From an uncultured Candidatus Saccharibacteria bacterium (lineage in GTDB: Bacteria > Patescibacteriota > Andersenbacteria > UBA10190), in NCBI GenBank assembly GCA_964610055.1, contig CAZSUC010000001.1:431912-495911 (forward strand): a stretch of DNA of 64,000 nt, written 5' to 3'. The stretch's first letter is position 1, and every line of letters starts with the position of its first letter. Made by a program: the position numbers and the translations under genes. Below the pieces are notes generated by a model, which searched no databases, had not been told where the DNA came from, and was given only the letters and a program-made list of their open reading frames with translations. Shown in pieces: positions 17,302-35,374 of the stretch.

Positions 17302-17323
17302 CTGCTTAAAACAGCGGTTTTCC

Positions 17324-18445: not shown

Positions 18446-18446
18446 A

Positions 18447-19157
18447 CTAATGCGATTGCAAGTAGCCGACCAAGCTGTAGGTATTAATACCAGAGGAGAG
18501 AAATGAGTTTGTTGTTAGATAACCAATAAAGGTGTTGCCAAGAAAAATTCTAGGTGGAGTAGATGTGTAGTTATTGAATGGGCTTTGTGATGAGTAAGCC
18601 CCACCATATCGACCATATTCATTGAAGATGCTTTTTGAGGAGTATTTACTTCCATAGGTTCCGTACGAATTAATAATAGAATTAGAGCTGTACTGATTCG
18701 AGGAAATAAGCCCTAGATATGTGCCATCATTGGCAATAAGCACGCCTATCCCATCAAGTTGAACAAATACATCAGAAAGTGTTAGTAATGGAGCAACACT
18801 TGCCACAGTTGAAGTACTGTTAGTTTTAGGGGTAACGCTTACGGCTTTCTTAGCGCTAGTATCTGGCATTGTAAGGCCTTTAGCCTTCTGAAACGCCATA
18901 GCCCCCTTCAAGGCTTCTTCTGTCTTTTTGTCGGTTCTAGCTCGCTTCTTCCAATATTCGCTTTCCATCGCATTTATTTTTTTACTAAAAACCTCACCAA
19001 AAATACGCTCAACAACTAATGGCACGTTTTTGTTGGGAATCAAATCCGAATCTTGTTGCGTTGCCGCAAGTCCATCTATAGGCCAAACAAACATCAACAA
19101 ACCAGTTGCTAATATTATAAATACGCCTTTTCTAAAATCTGTATTTAGTGGATTCAT
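18447..19157 (-). CDS. hypothetical secreted protein with Tyr/Gly/Ser short repeats
   Basis: 236 aa; signal peptide; C-terminal repeats NSYGTYGSKYSSKSIFNEYGRYGGAYSSQSPFNNY. Confidence 0.4.
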   Translation of the reverse strand: MNPLNTDFRKGVFIILATGLLMFVWPIDGLAATQQDSDLIPNKNVPLVVERIFGEVFSKKINAMESEYWKKRARTDKKTEEALKGAMAFQKAKGLTMPDTSAKKAVSVTPKTNSTSTVASVAPLLTLSDVFVQLDGIGVLIANDGTYLGLISSNQYSSNSIINSYGTYGSKYSSKSIFNEYGRYGGAYSSQSPFNNYTSTPPRIFLGNTFIGYLTTNSFLSSGINTYSLVGYLQSH

Positions 19158-19261
19158 GGTAATTTAACTGGTCTATTTAGATACTTTTGGTATACCACTC
19201 TTAGAGAAAAGCTACAAGCTGTATGTAGACCGTATGTAGCACAAGGAAGACGCTTAAATTA

Positions 19262-19465
19262 ATGACCGACATACGAACTAAGTTTGGTAAACGAATCCAG
19301 AAGCTACGTCTTTCGCGAGGTATATCGCAAGAAAAGCTTGCTCACTCCGTAGGCGTACATCGAACCTACATGGGATTCGTGGAGCGTGGCGAACGAAACC
19401 CCACTCTGACCAAAATTGAACGCATAGCTAAAACCCTTGATGTTTCGATACGGGATTTATTTTAG
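19262..19465 (+). CDS. XRE-family HTH transcriptional regulator (Cro/CI-like)
   Basis: 67 aa; LRLSRGISQEKLAHSVGVHRTYMGFVERGERNPTLTKIERIAKTL HTH_3 pattern; RBS AAGGAAG. Confidence 0.85.
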   Translation: MTDIRTKFGKRIQKLRLSRGISQEKLAHSVGVHRTYMGFVERGERNPTLTKIERIAKTLDVSIRDLF

Positions 19466-19819
19466 CGTCCAATAACAAACTTACGCCTAATTGCTCAGAA
19501 GGCTATCATCTATTTTGATCATGGTGCCAAAAAAGACTTGAGAATTGATTCCTCTGTTTCTAATAAGTTTGAGCCAGAAAAAACGGCGTACAATATGTAC
19601 AAAATAGCGAATCTAGAAAAATCATGGGACCTAAGTCCGGATCAGTTCGCCACCTTGGTTTCGAACCAAAAAAGAGATACCAGGAGCGGAAAATAAGAGG
19701 GTCTTGAGAGGTGTTTAGGACGGACTTTCGAACCGAAAATGAGACAGTTTGAGACACTATAAAAAAGAGGGTGTTTCGTGTCTCATTTATTGGACTTTGC
19801 AAATATTTTGTGGCCTAAC

Positions 19820-20146
19820 CTACTTTGATCTAGGCGAACAAACAAACCAATCTTGGTTCTTCGGGTTTACCCGCTCAAACTCAATTCCATTCCATTCATA
19901 AAGCAAGCAATACCAGGATTCATCAGCATGTAAACTACTCACATCACGAGCAATTACATCATCGCTTAGCTTTTCAAACTTTCGCTCCTCACCATTTAGT
20001 AAAGTGTAATCCGTTACTTCAACCTTAAAGGCAATTTCAATTCCCCCCTTCGCTTCATTTGAGTATATCCCTCCTTTACGGATCATGATGCTGGGTTCTC
20101 CTGTCGACCAATTGAATTTCTCGTCTTTATCCATAGCACTACTCAA
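19820..20146 (-). CDS. hypothetical protein, last gene of TIR operon
   Basis: 108 aa; start overlaps stop of TIR gene (ATGA); no recognisable domain. Confidence 0.45.
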   Translation of the reverse strand: MSSAMDKDEKFNWSTGEPSIMIRKGGIYSNEAKGGIEIAFKVEVTDYTLLNGEERKFEKLSDDVIARDVSSLHADESWYCLLYEWNGIEFERVNPKNQDWFVCSPRSK

Positions 20147-21123
20147 TTACCCTCATATTCACGCTCAATATGCTCAACCAAGTTCTCCCACAACAACTCA
20201 AGTAGCTCAGAGGTAGTCAACAAGACCTTACCAACGCCTACTGGCTTTAGTAAACTCACATCCATCAAGTTAATAACATATGAATCCTTTTCTTGACTCC
20301 ACTCAATTCCACCAAACGCATGCATTGCTTTGCGATCAAAACGCCGATCAGTCCACTGATAGAACGATATGTCATCATCACCAGTCATCCCACCAAGCCA
20401 GATAGCAAGATTGTAAATTTTCTTATTTCCACTTCTAACACGAACAATCCGCTCTCCATTACGATTAACTAACGAAACTTGAATACCTCTATCCTTAAGC
20501 AACTCCCCTCGCTTAACTAGCTCATCGACAAGAGAATCTACAACATAATCTGGGTCACTAGATGGATCATGTTCAATCGTTGGGATCCGCGGCAACCTAA
20601 TATTAACAGCGGGAGACACGGTCTGGGGTACTGACTCAACAACAACTTCACCACTAGGCGGCTGCACTTTCGCTGCTATACTTTGAGCTAACTCCTGAGG
20701 CGTAATTCTATTATTTCGCGCGTCGAGGTACTTAGTAGTTGGGTTTAACTGCTCTGGTAGCTCATCTCCTTGCAGCATAACTGGTAGAATGTAATCTCTC
20801 TTTCCACTTAAAACGCCCTGCGATAGCGCACTCTCTAACTCATGCGTTGTAAATGCCTTCTGTTGATAGATATCAGTAACAAAGATGACACAATAACTAG
20901 CACGACCTTTCCCAAAAATATTTTGTAGATACCCCGGCAAGCTATGGCCCCACATTTCCGTCTCTATATCTGGATCACGATCGTAAAATACAGAAACGCC
21001 TCTCTTCCGTAACTCACTATACACAGCTTCTACATATTCACGATCTTCACCTGCATAAGACAGCGCAACAGAATAAGTCGCTTTCTCTTCATTGGTACTG
21101 CTTTGTTCGTGCTTATTAACCAT
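20143..21123 (-). CDS. TIR-domain protein with ~170-aa C-terminal domain of unknown function
   Basis: N-terminal YSVALSYAGEDREYVEAVYSELRKRGVSVFYD and SYCVIFVTDIYQQKAFTTHELESAL match TIR motifs including the catalytic Glu position. Confidence 0.7.
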   Translation of the reverse strand: MVNKHEQSSTNEEKATYSVALSYAGEDREYVEAVYSELRKRGVSVFYDRDPDIETEMWGHSLPGYLQNIFGKGRASYCVIFVTDIYQQKAFTTHELESALSQGVLSGKRDYILPVMLQGDELPEQLNPTTKYLDARNNRITPQELAQSIAAKVQPPSGEVVVESVPQTVSPAVNIRLPRIPTIEHDPSSDPDYVVDSLVDELVKRGELLKDRGIQVSLVNRNGERIVRVRSGNKKIYNLAIWLGGMTGDDDISFYQWTDRRFDRKAMHAFGGIEWSQEKDSYVINLMDVSLLKPVGVGKVLLTTSELLELLWENLVEHIEREYEGN

Positions 21124-21167
21124 GACAACACATTATGCCACGACAGTATCAGAAAGTGAACACTACT

Positions 21168-22919
21168 TTAAGATGATGTATCGACCGTAATTCCATCTTC
21201 AACCCAAGGGAATTCAAATTCCACATCTATTCTTGCCTTCTTGGGATACTTCTTCAGAAAATTCTCATTTTCATCCACTAGATAGATGGTGCAGTAATCT
21301 GATCCATCGACACGTTTAAGCTTTCGACCATTCAGGACACCCTTCCGCTCCAACGCCTTTCTCGTCGATGGATGAACACTATAGTCATAATTCGTTTGCC
21401 ATTCAGTAAACCAGGTATCCTCGTTATCGCTGTGTAGTGAGGGGATAATGCCTTCCTTAATGTTACGCCAACAGTCAGCGCAGCGAAGTCCATCAAGATT
21501 CCACCATGCTTTACTGCCAGGCATATTCTCACCACAAATACCACAGGTATACATACCACCCTCACTATCTTCTAAAAAGAATCCATCCGGCTCTTTCTCA
21601 AGTCTGCGCTTGCGTGCGTTCTCGATACCTTCAAACTCACCAGACATTTTAGCTAATTGCACCCAGTTGTTGTTGGCATGCTTTCGCTTCATCTCTTCCG
21701 TTATTTTCGCAGCTGGCTTCTTTGGTTGTTCTTCTGTATATAGCTCCATTAAGTCCTCTTCTCGTTCATAGCCACGAATACGTCCAGATAAATATCCGAG
21801 GCGGTAAGAGATATGACCAGACAAGAGTCGCCAGTTTGTATCCTTGAGAGTTTCCTTGATAAGCTGTCGTAACTCATATTCACTGGCGCGGGTACTACGG
21901 TTAGGGTCAGCATCCTGAACACTGAATGGAAGAATGAAATTCATACCATCCTCTGGCTTTCCAAGCGAGAATTCCATGTACTGCGCTTTTTCGAGAGGCT
22001 TAATGAGCTTCTTCTTAAGATCGGCGACCTTAATTTTCTTAAGCTTTGACACTTCAGCATACGCCTGACCCTCATATTTCTCTCGCTCTTCCTTCAGAAC
22101 AACTGAAGCGACTTCAAGTGCTTCTCGTTGATCAAGGGCGGCTTTGCCCTGTTCTTCGGTAAGACAGAATAGGTGACGATATTTTTTAAGTAGTGCCTCA
22201 TCCTTTTTCTTCTCTTTTTCCTTTTCAGCTTCAAATTCTGAGAAGTCATCTATTTCAGTAGCTGAATATCCACATGCTTTACATGCACTTGTAGTAGTAA
22301 CAACATCACCCTTTCTTTTAGATGTTACGGTTATTTCTTTCCCACACTCGGGACATAGGTCTGGCTCTGGCTTCCACTCCTTACCATTCTCAAAGATTGC
22401 TTTTCGTTTTTTGCAATCGGGACAGGCAAAAAAGAACAGCATCTTCGATGGCTTATCATTAATCCCAGTTCGAAGACTCTTAAAGGTGGCGTGCATAAGA
22501 ACACCACACTGACATTGAATATCCTGAGGTGGTGGAGTGTTATCGTATTTATTTTGAAGCTTTTGATCTTTTTCTACCCACTCAGCTATTGTCTTTTCTT
22601 TCTCTTCATAGCGGCCGGTTAGAGTATAGAAGAGTTGATTGTAGAGCATTCGGTTAAGGTGGTTCTTTGTTTGGAGGGGCGTTTCTGTATTTCGAGAGTC
22701 TTTGACCATTTTTTGATACGTTTTCTGGTAGACATCTACTACATCCAGTGCTCGATGGATGGTTATGAGGTCGTAAAGATCAGTGTAGTGTTGCCCCGAC
22801 TTCAAATAGAGAGACTTTTGCATAGCCTCTAGAAGGCCCCTTTCCTTGAGAGCCTTAACCCCATCAGAAGCATGATTGCCAAAGAAATACCCGTAATGAT
22901 AAACGCCTCCTGAATCCAT
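21168..22919 (-). CDS. multi-zinc-ribbon coiled-coil protein of unknown function
   Basis: 583 aa; CxxC pairs QCQCG..CPDCK, CPECG..CKACG, CGICG..CADCW; Lys/Glu-rich coiled coil; alternative start MQKSL at 22823 lies 5 nt after upstream stop. Confidence 0.5.
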   Translation of the reverse strand: MDSGGVYHYGYFFGNHASDGVKALKERGLLEAMQKSLYLKSGQHYTDLYDLITIHRALDVVDVYQKTYQKMVKDSRNTETPLQTKNHLNRMLYNQLFYTLTGRYEEKEKTIAEWVEKDQKLQNKYDNTPPPQDIQCQCGVLMHATFKSLRTGINDKPSKMLFFFACPDCKKRKAIFENGKEWKPEPDLCPECGKEITVTSKRKGDVVTTTSACKACGYSATEIDDFSEFEAEKEKEKKKDEALLKKYRHLFCLTEEQGKAALDQREALEVASVVLKEEREKYEGQAYAEVSKLKKIKVADLKKKLIKPLEKAQYMEFSLGKPEDGMNFILPFSVQDADPNRSTRASEYELRQLIKETLKDTNWRLLSGHISYRLGYLSGRIRGYEREEDLMELYTEEQPKKPAAKITEEMKRKHANNNWVQLAKMSGEFEGIENARKRRLEKEPDGFFLEDSEGGMYTCGICGENMPGSKAWWNLDGLRCADCWRNIKEGIIPSLHSDNEDTWFTEWQTNYDYSVHPSTRKALERKGVLNGRKLKRVDGSDYCTIYLVDENENFLKKYPKKARIDVEFEFPWVEDGITVDTSS

Positions 22920-25384
22920 CGCGGCTTATAAACAAAAACAACTTCATGAGCTTCTCCTGGCACGTAAACTCCTCGAAATATACTATCCGTTCGATAAACA
23001 GGAACTTCATTCCCATCGACATACGCCTTCCATCCTGGGAAAAGCACGTCTCTCATTACAAGAAATCCGTCACCTTCATTCTTCACTTGTACAGCAACGG
23101 TATTGCGATTGTCCTGGACGCCTAGAACTTCACCAGTGGCTGCAAAGTCCATATTTTCTGAAACACTAGCTACTGCAAAGTTGATATCCTGAGAGTCAAT
23201 ATCTAGTAAGATATTTTTCTGTTCTTTACTACTATCTGCAGATGCCTGTACATGCCTAACAAAATGCACTCTAGGAAATGCTTCTTTGTTCTCATAAGTA
23301 CGAATAATCTTATCCCCCAATGGAATTTCTGAGACCTCCTCAAAATCTAGAAGATTATCTGCAAAACGATAAGGTGGGTATAAGCCTATTACATGCGTGA
23401 TAGGGAAACGATTTACCAACGAACGGTTATCTTGCCAAGCTGAACCACTGCCACGATCACCAAGAAATTCTAAATACTTACTCACGTCGTATAGTGGAAG
23501 TGGTCCCGTCCATTGCGCAGTGTTAATTCCAAATCCAGCCGGTGTATAAGGCGCTAATAGTTCATAGCCTTTTATTAGATCATTCGATACTACCAACTGG
23601 AAGGATATGTCAGTCGTGTTATCTCCTGCGATTACAGCTTCACAGTCATCAACGTTCCTACAGGAAAAAAGTTGCCCAGTAGGATTGTACTGATTGCTAT
23701 CAGGGTTTGTATGTATGTATAAACGAGAAGCTTGTTGCTTTTGAGATATATCTGAAGTGATCTCAAAATACATTGCCTGATCCTGAATGTTATCCAATTG
23801 CTCAAAAGAAAACGTACTCCATTCACCATCTCTAATATTTTGAGTAGATATTGAGCTCTTTCTTAGTAAATCACCTCTATCGTCAAATAGCTTCAAGGTA
23901 ATTTCTCCAACCACCGAGGACTCAGAAAGGCGAAGATTAATACCATCAATTTGATTAAAGGGGGAGGAAAAACTTTGCCGATATGCATACTGTGGGACAA
24001 TAGGATTCCAAATCATAATCCCGAAGTTGTTGTGTGGAGCAATTGCCGATAAACGCTCTTTGGAAAAAACTCGTACAAATGAATTTTGACTATTAAAAAA
24101 CTTTGCTACTTCTGGTTCTTGAGTAGCCTGCCAAGACACTTCATCGTGCCATCGCCAAGAAACATAAAAAACAGGAACAATGCTTCCTATAAGAATTATC
24201 ACTGCGAGAACAGTCTTCATTCTTCTGCTATGAGCAAGGTTCACAATCCAGTGAAATCCGATAGCAGAAAGCAAAATTAAACCAATATTAGAAAATAGAA
24301 AGAAACGCGCGGGCGAATTAAAATATCTCCACCCCATATCAACTAACCACACATATACAGCCGAATCTTTTCCGAGGGCTAACACGAAACCAAGATTTGT
24401 AATCACTACAGAAAAAAGCCAAAGGAATCGAAAACTTTTTCTACCAACTAAAAGACCAAACAAAGAGAGAAGTAGCGTTATTGGACCCAAGTAGCTTGAT
24501 AGTTCAGCTTCATTTTTAGGCCCCATATATTCGTCACCATGACCAAACGGATGTGGAATCACTAGCCCCTTTAACGCCTCAATAGGAAAACTAAAATCCA
24601 ATAACTCCTCATCCGTGCTAACACCTTGTGCCCGATCAGTAAAAGGAATGACTTCAACTATTGGCAACCAGTAGAAAGATGTTAATCCAATGACGATGAA
24701 TACACTTATCAGAATCAATAGCGCCCGCTTCCATTTCTTGTAATCAGTGACAAGAAGACACAAAACGAATATCGCTTGTAAAACGAAGATGATGACAGCC
24801 ATCTGAGGATGGCCAACTAATACACAAAGGGAACTACTCAAAATCCAATAAATTAATATACGGACTCCCCCTGTTTTCAAAAACATTTGTAGAAAAAGAA
24901 ATAAAAGTGGCACCCAGGTAAAAGGCAAAATGAGATTAATCATTTCATACTTACCTACAAAGGCTGCCCCTAGTGGCAGCAACAACGCTGCCATCCCGGA
25001 TGCCATAGTCTGAACTTTGTTAAATCTCAAAAAAGAAAAAACACCAATCGCTGCTAATAAGCTGTGAATAAGCATTGAAATATTAAGCGTCCAAACAGCT
25101 GGGAAAAACTGGCGTAAAGCCATATGCAGTGGATAAAAGAAACCTAATTGACCGGTCGCAAGTAATGGGTAGCCACCAGCTAACTCGGGTGACCACAAAG
25201 GCAACTCTCCGGACCTTTGAATGACACCATATAGGTTTTCTAACGCCGTCGTAGTGGTAACGAGGTCGTTATTAAACCACAATCCCCGAAAAACCCACTT
25301 TGTAATAAAGAAAAGGCAGATAATTAAGGCAATAACGCCAAAACTTCTAGTATCAAAATTTAACTGAAAGTTTATTTTCCTCAT
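22829..25384 (-). CDS. YfhO-like polytopic membrane protein (putative GT-C type glycosyltransferase)
   Basis: 851 aa; ~12 TM helices in first ~420 aa then large extracytoplasmic C-terminal domain, the YfhO family architecture. Confidence 0.4.
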   Translation of the reverse strand: MRKINFQLNFDTRSFGVIALIICLFFITKWVFRGLWFNNDLVTTTTALENLYGVIQRSGELPLWSPELAGGYPLLATGQLGFFYPLHMALRQFFPAVWTLNISMLIHSLLAAIGVFSFLRFNKVQTMASGMAALLLPLGAAFVGKYEMINLILPFTWVPLLFLFLQMFLKTGGVRILIYWILSSSLCVLVGHPQMAVIIFVLQAIFVLCLLVTDYKKWKRALLILISVFIVIGLTSFYWLPIVEVIPFTDRAQGVSTDEELLDFSFPIEALKGLVIPHPFGHGDEYMGPKNEAELSSYLGPITLLLSLFGLLVGRKSFRFLWLFSVVITNLGFVLALGKDSAVYVWLVDMGWRYFNSPARFFLFSNIGLILLSAIGFHWIVNLAHSRRMKTVLAVIILIGSIVPVFYVSWRWHDEVSWQATQEPEVAKFFNSQNSFVRVFSKERLSAIAPHNNFGIMIWNPIVPQYAYRQSFSSPFNQIDGINLRLSESSVVGEITLKLFDDRGDLLRKSSISTQNIRDGEWSTFSFEQLDNIQDQAMYFEITSDISQKQQASRLYIHTNPDSNQYNPTGQLFSCRNVDDCEAVIAGDNTTDISFQLVVSNDLIKGYELLAPYTPAGFGINTAQWTGPLPLYDVSKYLEFLGDRGSGSAWQDNRSLVNRFPITHVIGLYPPYRFADNLLDFEEVSEIPLGDKIIRTYENKEAFPRVHFVRHVQASADSSKEQKNILLDIDSQDINFAVASVSENMDFAATGEVLGVQDNRNTVAVQVKNEGDGFLVMRDVLFPGWKAYVDGNEVPVYRTDSIFRGVYVPGEAHEVVFVYKPRWIQEAFIITGISLAIMLLMGLRLSRKGAF

Positions 25385-25530
25385 TTCCTGGTACGGATTT
25401 AGAGGCGAGGGCTATATAAACACAAAGCCCGCCGCCAGCTCGCAATCTTTCGATCGCGCATACCCCTTTCGGGGTATGACCGTACCAGGGCTGCTGAACG
25501 ACGGGTTCAGTATCCTGGTACGGGGTTTCA
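25385..25530 (-). promoter_or_regulatory. structured 5' leader RNA with alternative-pairing elements (candidate translational RNA switch)
   Basis: CCTGGTACGG at 25387-25396 and 25514-25523 and its complement at 25478-25487 (inside GACCGTACCAGG, 25478-25489); perfect hairpins CATACCCC-ttt-CGGGGTATG and CTGAAC-gacgg-GTTCAG; GC-rich vs surroundings; the copy at 25387 abuts the AGGAA-ATG of the downstream gene. Confidence 0.45.
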
Positions 25531-25624
25531 ATGCCATGCCTCGAAAATTGAGGTTTAGGCAAATATTCAGTTATGTATCCATTTTTGCTCTAAACAGGCT
25601 TTAAATCAACTTTTCTAAATACCA

Positions 25625-25652
25625 TTGACGATGAGAGCGTTAAGAGTAAAAT
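25625..25652 (+). promoter_or_regulatory. sigma70-like promoter (TTGACG-16-TAAAAT)
   Basis: TTGACG at 25625-25630, TAAAAT at 25647-25652. Confidence 0.45.
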
Positions 25653-25701
25653 TTACTTAGAAGCAACGCTCGTTTAAAGAATAATAAAAAAGGATACTTC
25701 A

Positions 25702-25758
25702 ATGTCTGCAAAAGACGTAGTTGTATTCCCCTACTCCGACGGAGGCGTGCTCCGATAA
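25702..25758 (+). CDS. 18-codon leader ORF (MSAKDVVVFPYSDGGVLR)
   Basis: ATG with AAGGA RBS 6 nt upstream, between promoter and a strong terminator hairpin. Confidence 0.3.
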   Translation: MSAKDVVVFPYSDGGVLR

Positions 25759-25806
25759 CAAATGTAGAGTAGAGCTGGCAGTTAGCCTCGCGGGCGTAAC
25801 AGCGTA

Positions 25807-25876
25807 GAACTGTTCAGTGAAATCGAAGGTGGTTATTTTAACCATTTATTTTCGATGTCACTGAACAGTTTTTTGT
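25807..25876 (+). terminator. long intrinsic terminator / attenuator hairpin
   Basis: GAACTGTTCAGTGAAATCGAA ... TTCGATGTCACTGAACAGTT (about 20-bp stem, 1 mismatch) followed by TTTTTT. Confidence 0.55.
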
Positions 25877-25947
25877 TGGAGATAAGAAAATAAATAACAC
25901 CTTTGCTATCATCGAGCGTGGCTTTATTTAATCCTTCAAATAAAGTC

Positions 25948-27291
25948 ATGAAAAAGACTCCATACAAAAACCAACAAAATATCGACGTCGAGTACGTCAA
26001 CACAAAGAATCTAAAATCAGCGTCATATAACCCTCGGCATTGGAACGACGACGCAAGGAAGCAGCTCAAAGAGAGTGTGCGGCGATTCGGTCTCGTTGAT
26101 CCGATAATCTGCAATAGTGCTCCTTCTCGGAAAAACACAGTCATTGGTGGGCATTTTCGCTTGGCTGTTGCTAAAGAGCTTGGCTTCAAAGAAGTCCCCG
26201 TCGTTTACGTTAATATCCCTACTCTTGAGCGGGAAAAGGAACTTAATCTTCGACTCAATAAGAATCAAGGTGAATGGGATTTTGACCTATTGGCTGAATT
26301 CGATGAGAAATTACTCGCCGATGTCGGATTTAATTCCGAGGAGCTCGATGAAGTATTTGCTGAAATTGAAACGCCAGAAGAATTCGACCTTGAGAAAGAA
26401 CTTCAAAAACTTGATATCAAAACTGTTGAACTCAAGAAAGGTGACATCGTGCAATTAGGTGACAGTCGGATGCTAGTTGGAGACTCGACTATTGAGGCCG
26501 ATTTCATAAAGCTCATGAATGGTGAACAGGCGGACATGTGTCTGACCGATCCCCCATATTTACTAGATTATTTAAACGCCAAGCGTCATGGCAAAGCAGT
26601 AACAGGATTTGGGGCAAAGCGTGATCGACGGTATCTCGAAACGGATGTTTTACCAGATAACTTCACTGAGCTATGGATGGGTAATATTGCCAAGGTACAA
26701 AAAACAAACTTCAGTATTATCGTCTACGAGAATTGGAAGAATCTGCGCGTTATTTGGGAAGAAATGGAAAAGCACTGGAAAGTTAAGAACATGCTGGTCT
26801 GGCATCTGCCGAATCGCCATCAAGGCTTCTCCGCTAAGCACAAATTCTTCAGCAAGCATGACATCGCAATGGTAGGTGCAAGCAAGAATTCCGATGTCAC
26901 TTACAACCATTCCGAAGAAGCAGATGGTCTTCAAGAAGAATATGAGACTGCTTTGTATGCCATAGCCGGAAAACCACACTGGGAGGGATACAAGAAGGGC
27001 AAGAAAGTGATGCCAACTGACTTCATTGAATTCAATGCTTCTGATGAGAAGCATTCTGGGCAGGGCGTTGTGTTCGGTACCAAGCCCATCGAAATCCTCA
27101 TTCCCTACATCAAGGTACTCACGAAACGTGGCGACTTAATCGTGGAGCCATTCGGAGGATCAGGAAGTACATTGATCGCTGCCACGAAAATGAAGCGACG
27201 CTGCTACATCATGGAAAAATCTCCTGTATACGCGGAAGTGATTCGTAAGCGCTGGGAGAAGCTAACTGGGGAGAAAGGAGTGGTTGTATGA
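25948..27291 (+). CDS. ParB-like nuclease domain / DNA methyltransferase fusion (beta-class N6A or N4C)
   Basis: N-terminal ParB motif GGHFRLAVAKELGFKEVPVVYV; DPPY motif IV (CLTDPPYLL) preceding motif I (VEPFGGSGSTLIAA); ORF track begins at TTG 25903, ATG at 25948 more likely. Confidence 0.8.
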   Translation: MKKTPYKNQQNIDVEYVNTKNLKSASYNPRHWNDDARKQLKESVRRFGLVDPIICNSAPSRKNTVIGGHFRLAVAKELGFKEVPVVYVNIPTLEREKELNLRLNKNQGEWDFDLLAEFDEKLLADVGFNSEELDEVFAEIETPEEFDLEKELQKLDIKTVELKKGDIVQLGDSRMLVGDSTIEADFIKLMNGEQADMCLTDPPYLLDYLNAKRHGKAVTGFGAKRDRRYLETDVLPDNFTELWMGNIAKVQKTNFSIIVYENWKNLRVIWEEMEKHWKVKNMLVWHLPNRHQGFSAKHKFFSKHDIAMVGASKNSDVTYNHSEEADGLQEEYETALYAIAGKPHWEGYKKGKKVMPTDFIEFNASDEKHSGQGVVFGTKPIEILIPYIKVLTKRGDLIVEPFGGSGSTLIAATKMKRRCYIMEKSPVYAEVIRKRWEKLTGEKGVVV

Positions 27292-27722
27292 GCAAGGCAC
27301 TAGCCATAAAGCAGAGTAAGAAAAAAGAAGCATTACTTGAACAGCTCAGGAAAGTACCGATTGTGCAACTTGCCTGCGATCGCACTGACGTAAGTCGAGC
27401 AACGTTCTATCGCTGGAAGAAAAGTGATAAGGATTTTGCCGAAGCCGTTGATGAAGCTCTGCTATCAGGATCTTCGCTTATCAACGACATGGCGGAATCA
27501 AAGCTCATTGCCGCTATCAAAGAGGGCAACATGACTGGGATTATCTATTGGCTGAAACATCATCATCCGGCATATACCACCCGAGTAGAGCTGTCTGTGG
27601 GACCGAAGCAAAACGATGAGCTTACCGCTGAACAGCAGCAAGTAGTTCAAGAAGCGCTAGCAAAAGCAGCCCTTATTGAACAAGGGGAAATTAATTCACT
27701 AAATGAAACCTATGAAAAATAA
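27288..27722 (+). CDS. putative terminase small subunit (HTH)
   Basis: 144 aa; HTH RATFYRWKK; start overlaps methyltransferase stop (ATGA) and its end overlaps the large terminase start. Confidence 0.5.
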   Translation: MSKALAIKQSKKKEALLEQLRKVPIVQLACDRTDVSRATFYRWKKSDKDFAEAVDEALLSGSSLINDMAESKLIAAIKEGNMTGIIYWLKHHHPAYTTRVELSVGPKQNDELTAEQQQVVQEALAKAALIEQGEINSLNETYEK

Positions 27723-29151
27723 TATTCTATCGCCTGAAGTATTAGGTCACTTAATGCGTGACCGCATGGCACGACAAGCAGTAGCCTCTCATAACCATCT
27801 TCTGTTCTTCCATATCTACTTATCCCGATACGTAAAGTACGACACTGCAGAATTTCAACGTAAGCTATTCAAGCTCACCGAGGACTCGAGTATCCGACAT
27901 GCAGCTATCGTTGCATTTCGAGGGTCTGCCAAGACAACCATCATGACGCTTTCATACCCCCTTTGGGCTATCCTCGGTGTTCAGCAGCGTAAATTCGTCA
28001 TGCTTTTAAGCCAGACGCAGGGACAGGCTCAACAAATGCTTGTGAATCTGAAGCGTGAGATTGAGAATAATGAAATATTGCGGAATGACTTCGGTGCTCT
28101 TGAGCACGCAACCGATGAGTGGGGTCGAGAATCACTCGTTATCAAAAAATACGGTGCCAAGATTATGGCGGCTTCGAGCGAAACGAGTGTACGAGGCGTA
28201 CGGTTCGGAGAACACCGACCGGATCTCATCATCTGCGATGACGTTGAAGATTTGCAGTCAACCGCTACCCGAGAGGGACGCAATAAGACATATAACTGGC
28301 TCATGGGAGATATCATCCCAGCTGGAGACCGCAACACCCGAGTTGTTGTTATCGGAAATCTACTGCATGAAGACTCACTCCTCATGCGATTAAAAGAAGA
28401 TATGGATCGTGACCGACTTGATGGAGCCTTTCTGCAATTCCCTCTTTTGGATGAGAATGATAAGCCGCTCTGGCCAGGCAAGTTCCCTGACCAAGAAAGC
28501 ATTGATCGTCTACGTAAGACTGTACCAAGCCTACCAGCCTGGCATCGTGAATACATGCTTAACATTGTTCCAAATCAAGACCAGATTGTGCTTCAAGAGT
28601 GGATTAAATATTACGATAACCTTCCGCCAGAGGAGCGCTACAAAACTGTCGTGGCCGTTGATCTCGCAATCGGACTTGAGAAAAACAATGATTACACAGC
28701 AATCCTAAGTGCTCGCATTTATGGGTATGAAGATAAGATGCAGATATTTATTCTGCCAAATATCATCAACAAACGAATGAGCTTCCCAGACCAGCGCCTT
28801 ACGCTACAATCTGTTGCAGATAGCTTGGGGCATCCCAAGATATACATTGAAGATGTCGCCTATCAAAAATCGTTAATCCAGCAATTGAAAGCCGACGGGT
28901 ACAGTGTTGATGGCGCAAAGGTATTCGGACAAGACAAGTTCTCACGTCTCGAAACCGTAACTCATCTTTTGCAAAACGGTCAGGTGTTCTTCCCTCGAGA
29001 ACGTTCCAAGGAGCTTGTTAATCAGCTAACGGGCTTTGGAATTGAGAAACACGATGACCTAGCAGATGCCTTTTCAATTCTTCTGCAAAAAGCGATCGAG
29101 AATAACCGACGGCGAGGGCGAGTATGGGCACATAAGCCAAAGGGATTCTGA
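27703..29151 (+). CDS. phage terminase large subunit
   Basis: 482 aa; ATPase Walker A-like AFRGSAKTT, Walker B LIICDDVED; C-terminal RNaseH-like nuclease (VAVDLAIG...DYTAI). Confidence 0.8.
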   Translation: MKPMKNNILSPEVLGHLMRDRMARQAVASHNHLLFFHIYLSRYVKYDTAEFQRKLFKLTEDSSIRHAAIVAFRGSAKTTIMTLSYPLWAILGVQQRKFVMLLSQTQGQAQQMLVNLKREIENNEILRNDFGALEHATDEWGRESLVIKKYGAKIMAASSETSVRGVRFGEHRPDLIICDDVEDLQSTATREGRNKTYNWLMGDIIPAGDRNTRVVVIGNLLHEDSLLMRLKEDMDRDRLDGAFLQFPLLDENDKPLWPGKFPDQESIDRLRKTVPSLPAWHREYMLNIVPNQDQIVLQEWIKYYDNLPPEERYKTVVAVDLAIGLEKNNDYTAILSARIYGYEDKMQIFILPNIINKRMSFPDQRLTLQSVADSLGHPKIYIEDVAYQKSLIQQLKADGYSVDGAKVFGQDKFSRLETVTHLLQNGQVFFPRERSKELVNQLTGFGIEKHDDLADAFSILLQKAIENNRRRGRVWAHKPKGF

Positions 29152-29159
29152 TGTGCCAA

Positions 29160-30305
29160 CTAGACAAGGACATCATTGGAAGATTTTTCGCCAAAGAATT
29201 CACTAATCATCTCGTTGTATCTAAAGAAAGCACCAAGTAGTTGGAATGCATAGTCTGGTTGGATAATTCCATCCAATCGAAATAGCTTAATCTTTGTCGG
29301 CTTTCCCCTGCTCCTACTAAGAAGAGGATTCCACTCATCCCTAAATCTCTCATTGTGAACTGCTCGGCTATACGCAAAAACAGATCCATCAAAATGAGTA
29401 AACTTTTGCTGAGACCTATCCCATTCTAAGTGTGCAAACCGGTGCAGTACAACCTTGTCAGTAATTCCAGCACTTCCATTAATTGGCAAAATTTCTTCGA
29501 CAGAAATCGATTTCTTAGGTCCTGTCGACTGATTTTTTATATCAAAGACTGTAGCGTTAATCGGGTAGGTATCGTCCAGTATTTTCTTCTGACTATTTTC
29601 CATCCTCTTGTGCAGTGTCGTTCCTACATAATTTTGATCATTCAAATTTTCAATTGAAAAGTAAGGACCATGCCAATAGTCAGCCTCTACATACTCTAAA
29701 TAGTTCTTCGAATCAGTCATTCGGCTTGGATCAACAGCTAACTTAAGCTCAATATCATTATCATCATGAGCCTTCATCAGCAGGCTAGTTGTATCAGTAA
29801 ACTTTCCCTGAAAAAACCTTCGCAAAAATGGATGATAGTAGATAAGCTTATCTCCAAAAATAATTCCCTGTCTTCTTAAATCAAACAAACTAGCTTCTAC
29901 CAAATTATCACCATCAAACTCCAATTTCTCTTTCTTCAAAAAATCTACCACCAAACCACTGCCACCACGTTCAATATAAAAATTGATTCTCGGGAATAGT
30001 TTATCAACGTCATAGGTTATACATGCAAAAACAATATCTTCAATATTTTCAGAGCCCATTGGAAATAGCAGAAGTTTAAGATCAGGATATTTTTCCATTA
30101 AATCTTGAATATCTGCTTTTTTAACTCTCGTCTTATAAATAGCATCGAGCTTATCGTATAGGTGACGTAGCTGACTGCTATTTAGATAAAAATTTAAACG
30201 AGTAGGAATTCCATCCCTATGAAAAAGCTCTTGGGAAAAGTTGTTGAGCAATTCCTCCTCTGAGCTATTACCACCAACAAAATTGAGAATCGTCTTTTCT
30301 TGCAT
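29160..30305 (-). CDS. hypothetical protein (island cargo, unknown function)
   Basis: 381-aa ORF convergent with terminase large subunit; no recognisable motifs. Confidence 0.45.
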   Translation of the reverse strand: MQEKTILNFVGGNSSEEELLNNFSQELFHRDGIPTRLNFYLNSSQLRHLYDKLDAIYKTRVKKADIQDLMEKYPDLKLLLFPMGSENIEDIVFACITYDVDKLFPRINFYIERGGSGLVVDFLKKEKLEFDGDNLVEASLFDLRRQGIIFGDKLIYYHPFLRRFFQGKFTDTTSLLMKAHDDNDIELKLAVDPSRMTDSKNYLEYVEADYWHGPYFSIENLNDQNYVGTTLHKRMENSQKKILDDTYPINATVFDIKNQSTGPKKSISVEEILPINGSAGITDKVVLHRFAHLEWDRSQQKFTHFDGSVFAYSRAVHNERFRDEWNPLLSRSRGKPTKIKLFRLDGIIQPDYAFQLLGAFFRYNEMISEFFGEKSSNDVLV

Positions 30306-30377
30306 ATAAATAGCATAACATTTGAGGCCAGTTACCTACTTCCCTTGTAGAAAACCTTGCGGCACTGTTGACCTGCT

Positions 30378-31661
30378 ATGAGCGACATCCGCTACTGCCT
30401 ATATGCCAGAAAATCGTCAGAACGGGACGAACTTCAAGCCCTTTCAGTGGATTCCCAAGTAAAAGAGATGCAGGACATGGCTAGACGAGATGGGATTAAC
30501 GTGGTGGAGATATATCGAGAAAGTCACTCAGCTAAAGACTCGGGGCAACGTCCGGTATTCATGAAGCTAATTGAAGATATTAGGAGTAGCAAATTCAATG
30601 GAATTCTGACATGGGCGCCAGACCGCTTAAGCAGAAACGCTGGTGACCTGGGATCACTAGTTGATCTCATGGATCAAAAGAAGCTTGAAGAAATCCGCAC
30701 TCACGGTCAGACATTCCATAACTCGCCGAATGAAAAATTCTTACTCATGATCCTGTGTAGCCAAGCCAAGCTTGAGAACGACAATCGAGGACTAAATGTG
30801 AAGCGAGGCCTGCGCGCTAAGTGTGAGATGGGGTATAGGCCAGGGGTATCGCCGCTTGGGTATCTCAACAATAAATTTGCGAAGAAGGGCGAGAAGAAAG
30901 TTACACTTGATCCCGCTCGCGCGCCCATTATTAGGGAGATGTTCGAGAAGGTCGCATATGAAGGCTACAGCGGCCATCAAATACTAAGATGGATTAACAA
31001 TGAGACCGACTTTACTACCAGATCAGGAAAACAAATGGTGCTAAGCACCGTCTATCTCCTACTTCGCGATACTTACTACTATGGGAAATTTGAATACCCG
31101 AAGGGTAGCGGAAATTGGTACAAAGTTAATCACAAATCAATCATCACTAAGAAGATATTTGATCTGGTACAAGAAAATATCGTGGCTACAAAAAAGCGTA
31201 AGCCCGGAACACTGGAGTTCGACTTCACTCGGCTCATAACTTGCGGTGAGTGTGGCTCTGGAATATCAGCGGAGGAGAAATACAAACAACTTAAAAACGG
31301 ATCAGTAAATAGATATGTGTATTACCGATGCAGTAAGGGCAAGCGAGTAGAATGTCACGAACCGTACGTAAGAGAAGAAAACCTTGTTGAGCAGCTATTA
31401 CAGCTGATAGACAATCTGGATATGGATAAAATGCTTATTAGTAATAAGCTAGCCAAAGAATTAGAAAAGTACCAAAAGTTCGCATCTGGAGTGCTGCAGG
31501 TAGAAGAAATTAGTAGTACGCCAAAAGTAGATATTCGCAGTTATGCGAAGTATGTTTTAAAAGAGGGCAGTCGAAGCGAGAAAAGAGACATCTTATCTTG
31601 TCTGCAAACAAAATTAATTCTTACCAATCAAAAAATTTCTCTTAGAGCGCATAGCAACTAG
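30378..31661 (+). CDS. large serine recombinase
   Basis: 427 aa; resolvase catalytic domain YCLYARKSS...Q; recombinase domain; zinc ribbon CGECGSG...YYRCSKG. Confidence 0.9.
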   Translation: MSDIRYCLYARKSSERDELQALSVDSQVKEMQDMARRDGINVVEIYRESHSAKDSGQRPVFMKLIEDIRSSKFNGILTWAPDRLSRNAGDLGSLVDLMDQKKLEEIRTHGQTFHNSPNEKFLLMILCSQAKLENDNRGLNVKRGLRAKCEMGYRPGVSPLGYLNNKFAKKGEKKVTLDPARAPIIREMFEKVAYEGYSGHQILRWINNETDFTTRSGKQMVLSTVYLLLRDTYYYGKFEYPKGSGNWYKVNHKSIITKKIFDLVQENIVATKKRKPGTLEFDFTRLITCGECGSGISAEEKYKQLKNGSVNRYVYYRCSKGKRVECHEPYVREENLVEQLLQLIDNLDMDKMLISNKLAKELEKYQKFASGVLQVEEISSTPKVDIRSYAKYVLKEGSRSEKRDILSCLQTKLILTNQKISLRAHSN

Positions 31662-31678
31662 TCTAAGTAGGTACCTGC

Positions 31679-34600
31679 CTAAGCACTGCATATAACATCA
31701 AGATCTGTTCCAATAGTTTCTTTCAAGTAACTATGCGCAGCTGCAAGTACGGCTGCTTGCTCCGGGGTATGCGAAGCAAGCGAAAGCCCTGGTTGGACTA
31801 TAACTATCTCTGACCTTATCTCTTTAAACCTACTTACCTTTACATAGCGGTTAAGGTCTGAGGTTTGACCTACCAAAAAACGAGTTGCTCTGACCACTTT
31901 TATCAATCTCTTCTCTCTTCCCAAAACATGGCGGCATAAATCTCTAAATTTCCATTTCCACTTTGCTGACCGAATAGCCTGAGAACACACTTCAACTACA
32001 TCATTTACTCGTTCACCGGGGGTACTTCCCTTTGTAAATTTGCAATGAACCAATGTGAGTCTAATATGATCATCCTCTTCCTTTAAACAAACAAGATCAG
32101 CCGCCTCTCCTGAAGCGTCGTCATTAAATACCACGTCAAAGCCCCCTTCAATGAAATGCTGCGCAGCACGCCACTGAATCGAATCCAAATGCTCAGCGCC
32201 CTCTTTCCACATTGATTCCTTGCTAATGTCCACACCTTCCCAATCCCAAACCTCAAATCTTTCTACGGGAAAAGTGAGATCTTGTGTGCTCTGAGGGCGA
32301 ATCAGAAGGTTGCCATCCAGTTCTGATAGATCCATAAAACGTATTAGTGGAGGATAGTTAGAAAAATACTCTTCAACTTTCACTTCTAAGGAGCCGACTC
32401 GAATTTTTAGTTCCATCGAAGATGAGCGAGTAACCCGAAAGCCCTCTATACCCCCAACAGTTAGTTTAAAAATCCCCCAAACATCTCCTGTACTTGAACG
32501 AAGTTGGAAATCAACCTCACTAGTTGTTGCATCAGAGTGTAGTATTTCGATATCAAACATAGCAATCGATAGCTCATCATCTCCCTTTAGCAGTGTCACG
32601 CGCTCTTCCGACTGACGTATCAACTCTACCGGCCAGTCGATGCTTAATATTTGTGCGTCTGGAAGAGCGGTAACCTCTTCCGGAATCAAAACGTTTTCAA
32701 TAATTTTTTTTGTATCAATAGTATCGTCTTTCAACTTCCTACCAACAGCTTCACACCATCTTACAAGCTCGGGTACAGTCCCGGGCTCACGGGCCCAAAT
32801 ACGGCCCTTATATGAACACCCTATTGTTACCGGCCCACCATTTTCCCAGCCTGTTCCACTCAGGTTTGATTTTATAGATCCAGCTCTTTCTGAAATACTT
32901 AGAGCTTCTGCAACATCAGAACCTGTATACAACGCGTACCTTAAATTACGTCGCCCATGCTTCCGAACTCCCACATTTTGAAAAATCAGGCGATTAATAT
33001 TGCCAAGCGACCGAAAAATTATATCTCCTGATATTATCTGTGTACCACCGACTGCTAATGCAACCTTTTCATGATTTGAAGATTTGTCGCTCGATGACAG
33101 AAAAAGCAACCCTTGATCCTGATCATAGTGAAGAACAAAAAGATCCCATATGCGATCACGAATCTTTTTTGAGCGGGTCCACCGGATCGGTGGCTCCAGC
33201 CGAGTTACAAAATAAAGAGTATTTGTTTCCTCATGAAGCCATACCCTATGCACATTGAGACCTTTTGGTATTCCTTTAAAAAACCTTTTTGGGTTAAAAG
33301 ATGCTGCTTCATAGACAAGGGTACTGAAAGTTGGCCTTAGAAGATGGTGCGATATCTCAAGCTCCTCATCACCGTCAACTTCATCAAGTCTCTGTGACGA
33401 GTTAAGAAATTCAACCAAAGATGCGTGAGACCGAGCAGCATCAGAACTAAGCTCACTTAGAAGGTGGTTCCAGTCAGCATCTTCACTGTAAAGTCTTTCT
33501 AAAGCAGAAGACACACCTTGCTCGGCAATATTCGCAATCACAGTTGCATCACCAATTGACTCAGCAGAACTTCGAGTAAATCTTCCGGTAAATTGCAGAA
33601 GTATTGCTAAACTTTTGTGCGTATCATGAATAGCGGCAACTTTCAGTTGAGGAAGATCAAAACCTTCTCCTAGCATATTAACACACACGACTATTCGACT
33701 CCCTCCAGACCTTAACGTGTCTATCAATCCATCGGTATCAGCTAAATCAGAGTGAACAAGAACAGGGTTAAGATCGGGAGCAATTTCTTGATAAATTTGG
33801 CAAACATAGCTAGCCCTGCTTATGTTTGCACATCTTGCCATCATTATGTGGTTTTTCCCTGAGGCGACATCTTCACGTAAACGATCCACTGCAGCTTTTG
33901 CAATTGCCTGATCGGCTGCCTCTTGGTCAATCTCATAAACTGATTCAAAAGAAATCTTTTTGAAATATCCATCACGCTGTGCCAATTGAAGTGGGTATTC
34001 ATAAATCACTTTCCCATCAACCAACTTCCCATCTCGCCGATATGGTGTGGCAGTAAACTGTAAAACTTTGCACGCAGAAAAATTTTCACGGAAAGATGCC
34101 CAACCCTTTGCTGCGACGTGATGAGCCTCGTCAACAATTAAAGTATCAACTACTTCCGCAACTGCAGGTAGCAGACTAGATGTAACACTTCCAGTTAAAG
34201 CGCTCATGGTAGCTACTACTACGTTGCAATCCTCGAATATGCTGACTTCATCCTTAGTCCGGGGGCGCCTGGTAACTATTCCCACAATAGGGTTTTTTGC
34301 TCCAGGCATTAGGTTCCCAAGTGATCGCAGTAAGCCAAGGGTAAGAAATTTTTTAGCCGTTTGATCGCGCAGCACTCTAGACGGAACCACAACTAGTAAC
34401 CTCCCAGAGGCATATGCGATCAAGGTGGCAAGCATTGTCTCGGTTTTGCCAGTACCTGTGGGCATTACGATGGTAGCTGGCTGATTATTCAAGCTCCAGT
34501 GTGAACCGATTGCATGCAGTCCTCCTATTTGAGGTGGCCTTAAACCCTTCGATACAACATTACCAGCTTTATCCCTCTCCTCAGCATGAAAACTAAACTT

Positions 34601-34999
34601 ACCATTCCAACTAGCTGCTATTTCGGTTGCAATGTGCTTAAGGCCTTTTTGTTCAACATTTTCTTGAAATTCATCAAGTAATCTATGGGATAACCACTTT
34701 GATTCAGTACTAGCATCAATTTGCAATATGCCGTCCACACTAGAGGGACGAGAAAGTTTTTTTCGTTCTGTAACAATAATTGCTTGCCCGTCCGAGAGTT
34801 TGTATAGTTTTTCCCTAATTCTAGAAGAGACCTGAATGTCCTCAATGCTAATCACATCTTTTACCCCACCTTCTCCCAAAACGTGACTAATGTGCCCCAC
34901 GGCATGTTTAAGAGGTCCAAACTCAAGAGCAGGGAGTTTCAATTTCGTTGCAGTATTTTCTGATTCTAAATTTGGACTCATTATTGATATTAGAGACAA
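31679..34999 (-). CDS. SF2 DEAH-box helicase with large C-terminal region ending in a putative PD-(D/E)xK-like nuclease domain
   Basis: 1106 aa; Walker A MPTGTGKT, Walker B LIVDEAHHV, motif III FTATP, motif V NMLGEGFDLP, motif VI QFTGRFTR; C-terminal GEAADLVCL...LTLVHCKF; ORF track start is TTG, first ATG at 34981. Confidence 0.65.
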   Translation of the reverse strand: MSLISIMSPNLESENTATKLKLPALEFGPLKHAVGHISHVLGEGGVKDVISIEDIQVSSRIREKLYKLSDGQAIIVTERKKLSRPSSVDGILQIDASTESKWLSHRLLDEFQENVEQKGLKHIATEIAASWNGKFSFHAEERDKAGNVVSKGLRPPQIGGLHAIGSHWSLNNQPATIVMPTGTGKTETMLATLIAYASGRLLVVVPSRVLRDQTAKKFLTLGLLRSLGNLMPGAKNPIVGIVTRRPRTKDEVSIFEDCNVVVATMSALTGSVTSSLLPAVAEVVDTLIVDEAHHVAAKGWASFRENFSACKVLQFTATPYRRDGKLVDGKVIYEYPLQLAQRDGYFKKISFESVYEIDQEAADQAIAKAAVDRLREDVASGKNHIMMARCANISRASYVCQIYQEIAPDLNPVLVHSDLADTDGLIDTLRSGGSRIVVCVNMLGEGFDLPQLKVAAIHDTHKSLAILLQFTGRFTRSSAESIGDATVIANIAEQGVSSALERLYSEDADWNHLLSELSSDAARSHASLVEFLNSSQRLDEVDGDEELEISHHLLRPTFSTLVYEAASFNPKRFFKGIPKGLNVHRVWLHEETNTLYFVTRLEPPIRWTRSKKIRDRIWDLFVLHYDQDQGLLFLSSSDKSSNHEKVALAVGGTQIISGDIIFRSLGNINRLIFQNVGVRKHGRRNLRYALYTGSDVAEALSISERAGSIKSNLSGTGWENGGPVTIGCSYKGRIWAREPGTVPELVRWCEAVGRKLKDDTIDTKKIIENVLIPEEVTALPDAQILSIDWPVELIRQSEERVTLLKGDDELSIAMFDIEILHSDATTSEVDFQLRSSTGDVWGIFKLTVGGIEGFRVTRSSSMELKIRVGSLEVKVEEYFSNYPPLIRFMDLSELDGNLLIRPQSTQDLTFPVERFEVWDWEGVDISKESMWKEGAEHLDSIQWRAAQHFIEGGFDVVFNDDASGEAADLVCLKEEDDHIRLTLVHCKFTKGSTPGERVNDVVEVCSQAIRSAKWKWKFRDLCRHVLGREKRLIKVVRATRFLVGQTSDLNRYVKVSRFKEIRSEIVIVQPGLSLASHTPEQAAVLAAAHSYLKETIGTDLDVICSA

Positions 35000-35127
35000 T
35001 TGTTAACCCCATACAATAGTATATCCACGACACTTAGGCACGCCTGGACTTAGGGGCACTTCTGTGCTCCATATGATAATTGAGACCTTGGATAGAGTCC
35101 GGTTGACTCGAACTAAATTGGCTTGCT

Positions 35128-35198
35128 CCGGGACAGGGATTCGAACCCCAATTTTTGGGACCAGAACCCAACGTCCTGCCGTTAGACGATCCCGGAAT
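35128..35198 (-). tRNA. tRNA-Gln (anticodon CUG)
   Basis: Cloverleaf derived by hand: acceptor tccggga/tcccgga, anticodon arm ttggg-ttCTGgt-cccaa, T-arm ggggTTCGAATccct. Confidence 0.7.
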
Positions 35199-35276: not shown

Positions 35277-35350
<74 letters not shown>

Positions 35351-35374
35351 CTAGCATGTGGTATAATCAAGAAC

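Follow-up and report, generated by a model that had tools for sequence, protein, structure and literature searches.

A probable large-serine-recombinase element with a terminase cassette at the 3' end of a tRNA-Gln gene in a patescibacterial genome

Several described classes of small integrated elements carry packaging genes without a full virion module, namely the phage-inducible chromosomal islands (PICI), the capsid-forming PICI (cfPICI) and the PICI-like elements (PLE), of which the PLE use a large serine recombinase (LSR). The cfPICI encode a large terminase, TerL (de Sousa et al. 2023, PMC10085698). Tycheposons, modular cargo elements found at tRNA genes of Prochlorococcus, bring hallmark replication and integration genes of their own, mostly with tyrosine recombinases, and leave partial tRNA repeats; some are PICI-like, with either terS or a capsid gene as packaging gene, and an LSR was reported in 27 of 937 (Hackl et al., bioRxiv 10.1101/2020.12.28.424599). 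For the bacteria of the candidate phyla radiation (CPR), with their tiny genomes, mobile elements have been little characterised. Here, we describe a locus in a stretch of 64,000 nucleotides, referred to as the window, from an uncultured Candidatus Saccharibacteria bacterium (GTDB lineage Bacteria; Patescibacteriota; Andersenbacteria; UBA10190; GenBank assembly GCA_964610055.1, contig CAZSUC010000001.1, positions 431,912 to 495,911). The region that ends at its tRNA-Gln(CTG) gene is probably an integrated mobile element of ~16-18 kb, which would have been inserted by its own LSR at, or one to two bases inside, the 3' end of this tRNA. An earlier note on this DNA, made from the letters alone, had outlined a foreign island at 19200-35198; its right end, its recombinase and its discreteness are borne out below, while its left end is moved.

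The LSR is the only recombinase that Pfam detects between 17 and 35 kb, as the earlier note had claimed. It is full length relative to its homologues, and its domains follow each other in the order PF00239 (1e-20), PF07508 (5e-12) and PF13408 (5e-9), which is the architecture of integrase-type enzymes; residues 9-15, YARKSSE, contain the N-terminal catalytic-serine motif Y-x-R-x-S, as judged by eye rather than by alignment to a solved enzyme. It matches the integrase family phrog_95 at 1e-65, and at least 8000 homologues were found at E < 1e-30, their source names being mostly Patescibacteria. That this protein acts as the integrase of the element is, as far as sequence comparison goes, well supported.

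Homologous elements point to the tRNA as its target. For all six LSR homologues that we looked up (L122, L123, L151, L152, L153 and L155; 60-88% identity), the element borders on the 3' end of a tRNA on the minus strand, which faces the LSR, and the identity of this tRNA varies: tRNA-Asn interrupted by a group I intron at L122 (LSR 88% identical) and L152 (71%), tRNA Asn-GTT at L123 (79%) and L151 (75%), tRNA Gln-TTG at L153 (63%), and an intron-containing tRNA without assigned isotype at L155 (60%). A box of the form GGAT[AG]G..[AT]CCGGT begins at a fixed distance, exactly 35 nt ahead of the GCTCC at the tRNA 3' end, in the window and at L122, L123, L151 and L152; the offset is unchanged in L153, where the box is sequence-degenerate, and L155 has the box in a shifted variant. 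Since this box is absent from the 3' flanks of all six tRNA-Gln(CTG) genes in LSR-free relatives, where the flanks are unrelated, we take it to be element DNA rather than a tRNA trailer. Homology between the window and its nearest relative, L124, begins at 35127, at the tRNA 3' end. Together, these comparisons argue well for a right junction at 35125/35126. The tRNA-Gln(CTG) itself, which lies on the minus strand and points into the island with its 3' end, was recovered with both ARAGORN and Rfam, so that this part of the earlier note, including the right edge at the tRNA, holds.

On the element side of the junction, the box GGATAGAGTCCGGT together with the following 21 nt is likely the recombinase-binding P arm of the right attachment site, attR. 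In the proposed mechanism, attR would consist of the conserved terminal segment 35041-35125 joined to the tRNA, whose acceptor and T-arm would serve as the B' arm. The base at the junction itself may also be informative: GCTCC, with discriminator G73, is found in the element-associated tRNAs (window 35125-35127), and GTTCC, with A73, in the three nearest LSR-free tRNA-Gln(CTG) genes (L124, L008 and L028) as well as in the tRNA-Gln(TTG) of the window (60572-60574), with G73 also present in two more distant LSR-free relatives. This gives a hint, and only a hint, that the element may supply the last base or two of the tRNA and thereby replace the discriminator. A 15-mer scan of viral contigs for the box returned 25 matches, none of them with an LSR or TerL, and these were set aside as chance or D-arm-like.

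The target tRNAs interrupted by group I introns (L122, 11500-11848; L152, 14154-14398; L155, 17949-18150) were missed by ARAGORN, and integration beside intron-bearing tRNAs seems to be common in these CPR genomes. At L153, an RNase P RNA gene (11821-12148, minus strand) lies directly beyond the target tRNA-Gln(TTG), such that the island there adjoins two essential RNA genes.

The discreteness of the insertion, asserted in the earlier note, is supported by gene order and by composition. The gap between transketolase-rpe-rpiB on the left and tRNA-Gln/tRNA-Arg-ABC-ftsX-ftsE-prfB on the right measures 18.1 kb in the window, 5.1 kb in L008 and 2.5 kb in L029, and the genes that fill the two shorter gaps are unrelated to those of the island. 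Both are distant relatives, L008 being a metagenome-assembled genome with flanking proteins 45-89% identical and L029 a metagenome contig. The content at the tRNA site in L124, L008 and L029 is unrelated or much shorter, at an identity of the neighbouring ABC protein of only 73%, 53% and 47%, respectively. The divergent tRNA-Gln/tRNA-Arg pair is also present in L124 and L008; gene order near these tRNAs is fluid in relatives, with the tRNA-Gln inverted in L029, for example. Trinucleotide deviation is continuously raised from ~17.5 to 35.1 kb and falls steeply on both sides. Measured against 44 backbone genes, codon usage gives z <= -2.15 for all genes of 17639-34999: it is most deviant for the methylase, small terminase (TerS), TerL and LSR genes (-4.7 to -5.6), followed by those for the helicase (-3.3), the YfhO-like protein (-2.6), the 268-aa and 236-aa proteins (both -2.5) and the 381-aa protein (-2.4), with ordinary values for rpiB (-1.3) and the ABC gene (-0.7). 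GC content shows no signal that would mark the island across the window.

Serine recombinases exchange strands at a 2-bp core, and attL and attR share nothing longer; a long repeat at the left end is therefore not to be found by searching with the tRNA. In line with this, and with the earlier note, which had seen no unambiguous direct repeat, a k-mer and Smith-Waterman search of the window for repeats of the tRNA 3' end and of its flank, direct or inverted, yielded none of 13 nt or more, except in the paralogous tRNA-Gln(TTG) and for a 13-mer within rpiB that we put down to chance. A P' arm would be expected as the terminal box in reverse complement, which gave no consistent match in the window and four relatives, and a comparison of the window with L122, L151, L123 and L152 for a shared left terminus aligned only the LOOT RNA region (see below) above shuffled controls.

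The left junction most likely lies within 17303-17638 (17.3-17.64 kb), without being placed to the base. This zone is favoured because four lines agree on it: codon z steps from its rpiB value to that of the 268-aa and 236-aa genes at 17639, trinucleotide deviation climbs from ~17.5 kb, rpiB is a conserved synteny anchor in L008 and L029, and the 236-aa protein is rare, with three full-length homologues among 5.8 billion proteins compared to 122 for the flanking ABC gene. Certainly, the edge lies left of 20143, because homologues of the TIR-domain protein and the 583-aa protein travel with the same TerL and LSR to another site (L122). The earlier note had instead named 19470-19810 and 19160-19260 as candidate left edges and started the island at 19200. 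These stretches are indeed non-coding and divergent intergenic, respectively (19466-19819 and 19158-19261), but find no support as edges: the genes from 17639 onwards are compositionally foreign, the backbone anchor is rpiB and the 236-aa gene is a rare accessory, which puts the proposed boundary probably ~2 kb too far to the right.

Other candidate signals on this side led to little. A permissive Rfam scan of 19450-19850 for a tRNA relic was negative, and 19645-19667, considered as a repeat of the tRNA-Gln end, matches the native end at 15 of 23 positions, a level reached ~3.7 times in shuffled windows. Of the five copies of the T-loop octamer TTCGAACC in the 64 kb, three lie in tRNA T-loops; the other two, at 19660 and 19727, stand within 70 bp of each other in the non-coding stretch, the one at 19660 inside the palindrome TTGGTTTCGAACCAA. 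This pair may derive from a former tRNA 3' end or belong to a half-site of a recombinase. Breaks in Logan assemblies, tried as boundaries, fell inside tRNA-Arg on the right in both samples and at 17515 and ~17884 on the left, and were rejected as conserved-tRNA and coverage artefacts. An exact-protein look-up of the 75-aa open reading frame (ORF) at 17371-17598 returned no record.

The core of the proposed element would be the rightward series of ParB-methylase, TerS, TerL and LSR genes. The same order, with the LSR on the same strand, recurs in L107-L112 and L114, found in IMG/VR via TerL, and in L123, L151 and L152, found via the LSR; in L113, also found in IMG/VR via TerL, a type I restriction-modification system comes after the cassette, and an LSR was not seen. 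Among these copies the cassette proteins are 44-76% identical, and at none of these loci did we find portal, capsid or tail genes. Likewise, TerS and TerL are the sole matches to phage modules that PHROGs and Pfam give for the ORFs of the window island, with no virion or lysis genes, so that it does not qualify as a prophage; the window TerL is at most 29% identical to known phage TerL. In L151, host-like genes flank the element on both sides, its left edge being unmapped. That the structural genes were deleted in the same way time after time is implausible, and the cassette thus seems to be kept together as a unit. Not every element has it: it is absent in L153 and L155, and decaying in L122, where TerL is truncated and the methylase and TerS genes are lost. 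The recurrence of the cassette without capsid genes is new here, and no description of LSR-terminase elements in CPR bacteria was found in the literature searched. L107, L109 and L110 carry two tandem, diverged TerL genes, each ~48-51% identical to that of the window, showing that TerL is sometimes duplicated; L109 and L110 also carry two methylase genes.

To the left of the core, the element would carry a leftward cargo operon, composed of the genes for the YfhO-like protein, the 583-aa zinc-ribbon protein, the TIR-domain protein and a 108-aa ORF, and preceded by the LOOT RNA. Homologues of its products accompany the cassette elsewhere: in L122, a homologue of the TIR protein (59%) and what is left of the 583-aa gene stand beside the same TerL (97% identical) and LSR at a different chromosomal site, and homologues of the 583-aa protein adjoin the methylase in L108 and L113. 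A second cargo slot would lie between the LSR and the terminus, where the window holds the helicase, the one gene that the earlier note had correctly placed between LSR and tRNA. This slot differs in content among relatives: an M78 peptidase with an XRE regulator in L123, a caspase-like peptidase in L151, three genes without known function in L152, a 73-aa ORF in L153 and no gene at all in L122, where the LSR stop codon lies 160 bp from the junction. We now read the helicase as cargo inside the element because this gap is a slot of varying content. Between TerL and LSR, the place of the 381-aa gene is taken by a non-homologous gene in L152 and L122, and by an unannotated gap in L112 and L114.

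Much of this cargo resembles defence genes. The helicase matches PbeA of PADLOC at 8e-15, with weak matches to HamB and Cas3, and is probably a defence gene. The TIR-domain protein gives weak ThsB matches (4e-5) and has no ThsA-like neighbour, so that we do not assign it to Thoeris. The relatives carry type III restriction-modification systems (L123 and L152), the caspase-like peptidase already mentioned (L151), large AAA_11/12 helicases with TerB_N (L153) and a related helicase in L108, and an OLD-like ATPase with RmuC (L155). Judged by these annotations, the cargo is defence-like throughout the element family.

The LOOT RNA, an orphan metagenomic motif, is a further component that turns up repeatedly in these elements. 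In the window it scores 82.9 bits against a gathering score of 46.4 and covers model positions 1-121 of the Rfam family; in relatives it scores 83-95 bits (L151, 5814-5937; L123, 6233-6359; L152, 9716-9832; L155, 4346-4465). LOOT and a DNA methylase gene run divergently in four of the five elements, including the window. Upstream of a leftward gene, LOOT lies within 65 nt of it in both the window and L151, the distance to the YfhO-like gene of the window being 57 nt; in L155 the next leftward gene also starts near LOOT, at a distance that was not recorded. The four aligned copies from the window, L151, L123 and L152 show compensatory changes in their stems. A scan of viral contigs with a LOOT-derived pattern gave zero matches, and the papers searched name neither a function nor a host for LOOT. 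Its membership in this element family, based on these five elements, appears to be new.

Table 1. Features of the window, with positions counted from its first nucleotide.
Feature	Position	Strand	Basis or remark
Left backbone: split transketolase, rpe, rpiB, DUF378 gene	rpiB end 16997; DUF378 gene 17098-17301		
Terminator after DUF378 gene	17322-17351		
Two secreted proteins, 268 aa and 236 aa	17639-19157	minus	without Pfam family
Divergent intergenic region between 236-aa gene and XRE/C-protein-like gene	19158-19261		
XRE/restriction-modification controller-like helix-turn-helix protein, 67 aa	19262-19465	plus	PADLOC Control_protein, E = 7.5e-22; PHROGs transcriptional regulator
Non-coding stretch	19466-19819		terminator-like hairpin 19737-19788 serving leftward operon
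108-aa ORF, last gene of leftward operon	in leftward cargo block 19820-22919	minus	
TIR-domain protein	20143-21123	minus	TIR_2, E = 2e-14; weak ThsB and PDC-S66 matches
Zinc-ribbon protein, 583 aa	21168-22919	minus	
YfhO-like polytopic membrane protein, 851 aa, first gene of leftward operon	22829-25384	minus	
LOOT RNA (RF03000)	25441-25561	minus	Rfam
ParB-N/DNA methyltransferase fusion	25903-27291	plus	Pfam; phrog_498 at 3e-81
Small terminase (TerS)	27288-27722	plus	Pfam; PHROGs TerS families
Large terminase (TerL)	27703-29151	plus	Pfam; phrog_38 at 3e-83
381-aa protein between TerL and LSR	29160-30305	minus	no Pfam, PHROGs, PADLOC or NCBIfam match
LSR, 427 aa	30378-31661	plus	Resolvase, Recombinase and Zn_ribbon_recom domains
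Superfamily-2 helicase (ResIII/DEAD), 1106 aa, long C-terminal region	31679-34999	minus	Pfam
Conserved right terminus of the proposed element	35041-35125	plus	includes CGCCTGGACTTAG (35041-35053) and box GGATAGAGTCCGGT (35090-35103)
tRNA-Gln(CTG)	35125/6-35196	minus	3' end leftward into the region; ARAGORN and Rfam
tRNA-Arg(CCG)	35278-35351		divergent from tRNA-Gln(CTG); ARAGORN and Rfam
Right backbone: ABC ATPase, ftsX, ftsE, prfB			
Second, decayed island	56765-60571		four genes of unknown function; no recombinase left
Degenerate terminal box GGATAGGAAATGGTCGGTTTTAGAAC of second island	60535-60560		~2 nt nearer the tRNA than in intact elements
tRNA-Gln(TTG)	60572-60643	minus	beside second island

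Some of the features in Table 1 call for comment. The Pfam YfhO match of the 851-aa protein is C-terminal and, at E = 2.6e-6, under the curated cut-off. The pair of secreted proteins is either cargo or an older insertion. The gene for the 67-aa regulator, uncalled in the earlier note, is C-protein-like, yet no restriction endonuclease gene lies nearby. Contigs identical to the window are present in three Logan runs. The source names attached to homologues of the flanking ABC gene point to an uncultured Candidatus Andersenbacteria (CPR/Patescibacteria) as the host. For the second island, whose left limit is the host TspO gene, three of the four genes have codon z values of -3.2 to -6.4, and GC reaches 0.51. 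When the left ends of the two islands in the window were compared, a single 17-nt match emerged (p ~0.015 across 8 tests), in the wrong orientation, and was rejected.

Three other explanations have to be weighed against an LSR-inserted element of this extent. It is conceivable, though rather improbable, that the LSR element proper runs only from LOOT to the tRNA (~25.4-35.13 kb) and that 17.6-25.4 kb represents one or several older, unrelated insertions, making the site a composite hotspot. The compact L151 element, with LOOT near its left side and three small ORFs before recognisable host genes, would fit such an arrangement, as would the tandem accretion demonstrated at L155 and the two T-loop-like octamers within 19466-19819. 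The core cassette is also far more deviant in codon usage (z ~-5) than the genes on the left (~-2.5), but cargo that is surely internal, namely the helicase and the 381-aa gene, is equally moderate. The companions of the cassette in L122, L108 and L113 described above likewise speak for a larger unit, and no internal copy of the terminal box, such as marks the tandem junction in L155, was found between 17 and 35 kb.

Very unlikely, in our view, is a decayed prophage remnant that lost its structural genes and became immobile, its adjacency to the tRNA being merely historical. The terminase genes are phage-derived, the cassette is decaying in L122, and no attL is detectable; an intact four-gene cassette without portal, capsid or tail genes, however, is present in at least 11 independent contigs, which suggests long-term selection as a unit, and the distance of TerL from its known phage counterparts also argues against such an origin. 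That there was no insertion at all, the region being fast-evolving host DNA and the box the tRNA's own 3' trailer, we consider scarcely credible. The unremarkable GC content and the fluid gene order around these tRNAs could be cited in its favour, but a trailer is contradicted by the distribution of the box, which is missing from the flanks of the six LSR-free tRNA-Gln genes and, whenever the LSR is there, stands next to tRNAs of different kinds; moreover, both ends show a sharp change in codon usage and in trinucleotide composition, and the same genes occur at another locus in L122.

Insertion by the LSR at the tRNA 3' end thus remains the preferred reading, and several observations weigh against it. 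No attL was found: between 17 and 26 kb, we see neither a mirror image of the P arm nor a repeat of the tRNA end. No empty site turned up in a genome scan, a metagenome scan and a search for homologues of the flanking proteins, the closest relative (73% in the flanking ABC protein) being a 2.2-kb contig. The crossover position is inferred from the point where conservation ends, and the block at 17.6-19.5 kb may have entered separately and earlier. To integrate at the end of a tRNA and leave that tRNA intact is more typical of tyrosine integrases. In L155, two LSR elements stand in tandem at one tRNA, with a ~200-bp terminal segment repeated (11861-12056 and 17730-17923) and, between these copies, a 66-nt relic of the LSR-gene 3' end (66-nt segments at 11317-11382 and 16242-16307); such re-use of an occupied site is not predicted by the canonical attP x attB reaction. 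Finally, that the terminase pair would let the element package into the capsids of a helper phage, in the manner of a satellite, is conjecture.

With this reservation, a broader proposal can be put forward, which we hold to be possible and on balance doubtful: an undescribed and abundant family of CPR/Patescibacteria elements, in which the LSR would dock at tRNA 3' ends via the box, anti-phage cargo would occupy two slots, and the elements would bear LOOT and a minimal module of ParB-methylase, TerS and TerL genes, through which they would enter the capsids of a helper phage as a terminase-bearing satellite without capsid genes of its own, LOOT acting as a regulator or as a cofactor of packaging or recombination. 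If true, a tRNA-targeting LSR family of at least 8000 homologues that moves defence genes would account for some of the differences between strains of these bacteria, and new tRNA-specific serine integrases with a recognisable attR would become available for genome engineering. LOOT gains a testable genomic context, and with a terminase cassette that stays intact where capsid genes are missing, one may ask whether CPR bacteria harbour phage satellites of a new kind. The extent of the island is corrected for annotation, and the search for tRNA direct repeats is seen to fail here for a reason that lies in the recombination mechanism.

How, then, does this locus compare with the known systems? 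With the serine-integrase phages phiC31, Bxb1, TP901-1, A118 and SPbeta it shares a three-domain recombinase, the lack of a long att repeat and an integrase gene near one end (~160 bp in L122, the relative without cargo in this slot), whereas those are complete viruses with mostly protein-coding targets, compared to a tRNA 3' end and no virion genes here. Like PICI, cfPICI and PLE, it would be a small integrated element that has packaging genes and no full virion module. However, unlike in cfPICI, Pfam and PHROGs reveal no capsid, portal or head-tail adaptor genes, which sets it outside that class, and unlike in PICI there is no alpA or primase-replicase gene; of the core sets it has an integrase analogue, TerS and TerL only, and a helper phage is not known. 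Tycheposons resemble it in their modular cargo and tRNA target, but here a replication module is missing, TerL accompanies TerS, and no tRNA repeat is left. In the staphylococcal cassette chromosome mec (SCCmec), LSRs (CcrA/CcrB/CcrC) place a variable cargo island at the 3' end of a conserved housekeeping gene, and tandem or composite arrays arise, much as we see it in these elements. CcrB is also the closest NCBIfam family to the LSR (1e-32), yet at 113 bits against a cut-off of 900, so that the LSR is no Ccr orthologue. SCCmec differs in its target, rlmH rather than a tRNA, and here we find a single recombinase gene, a terminase cassette, LOOT and a CPR host. By analogy, SCCmec would be the closest mechanistic counterpart of the element, and the tycheposons its closest ecological one.

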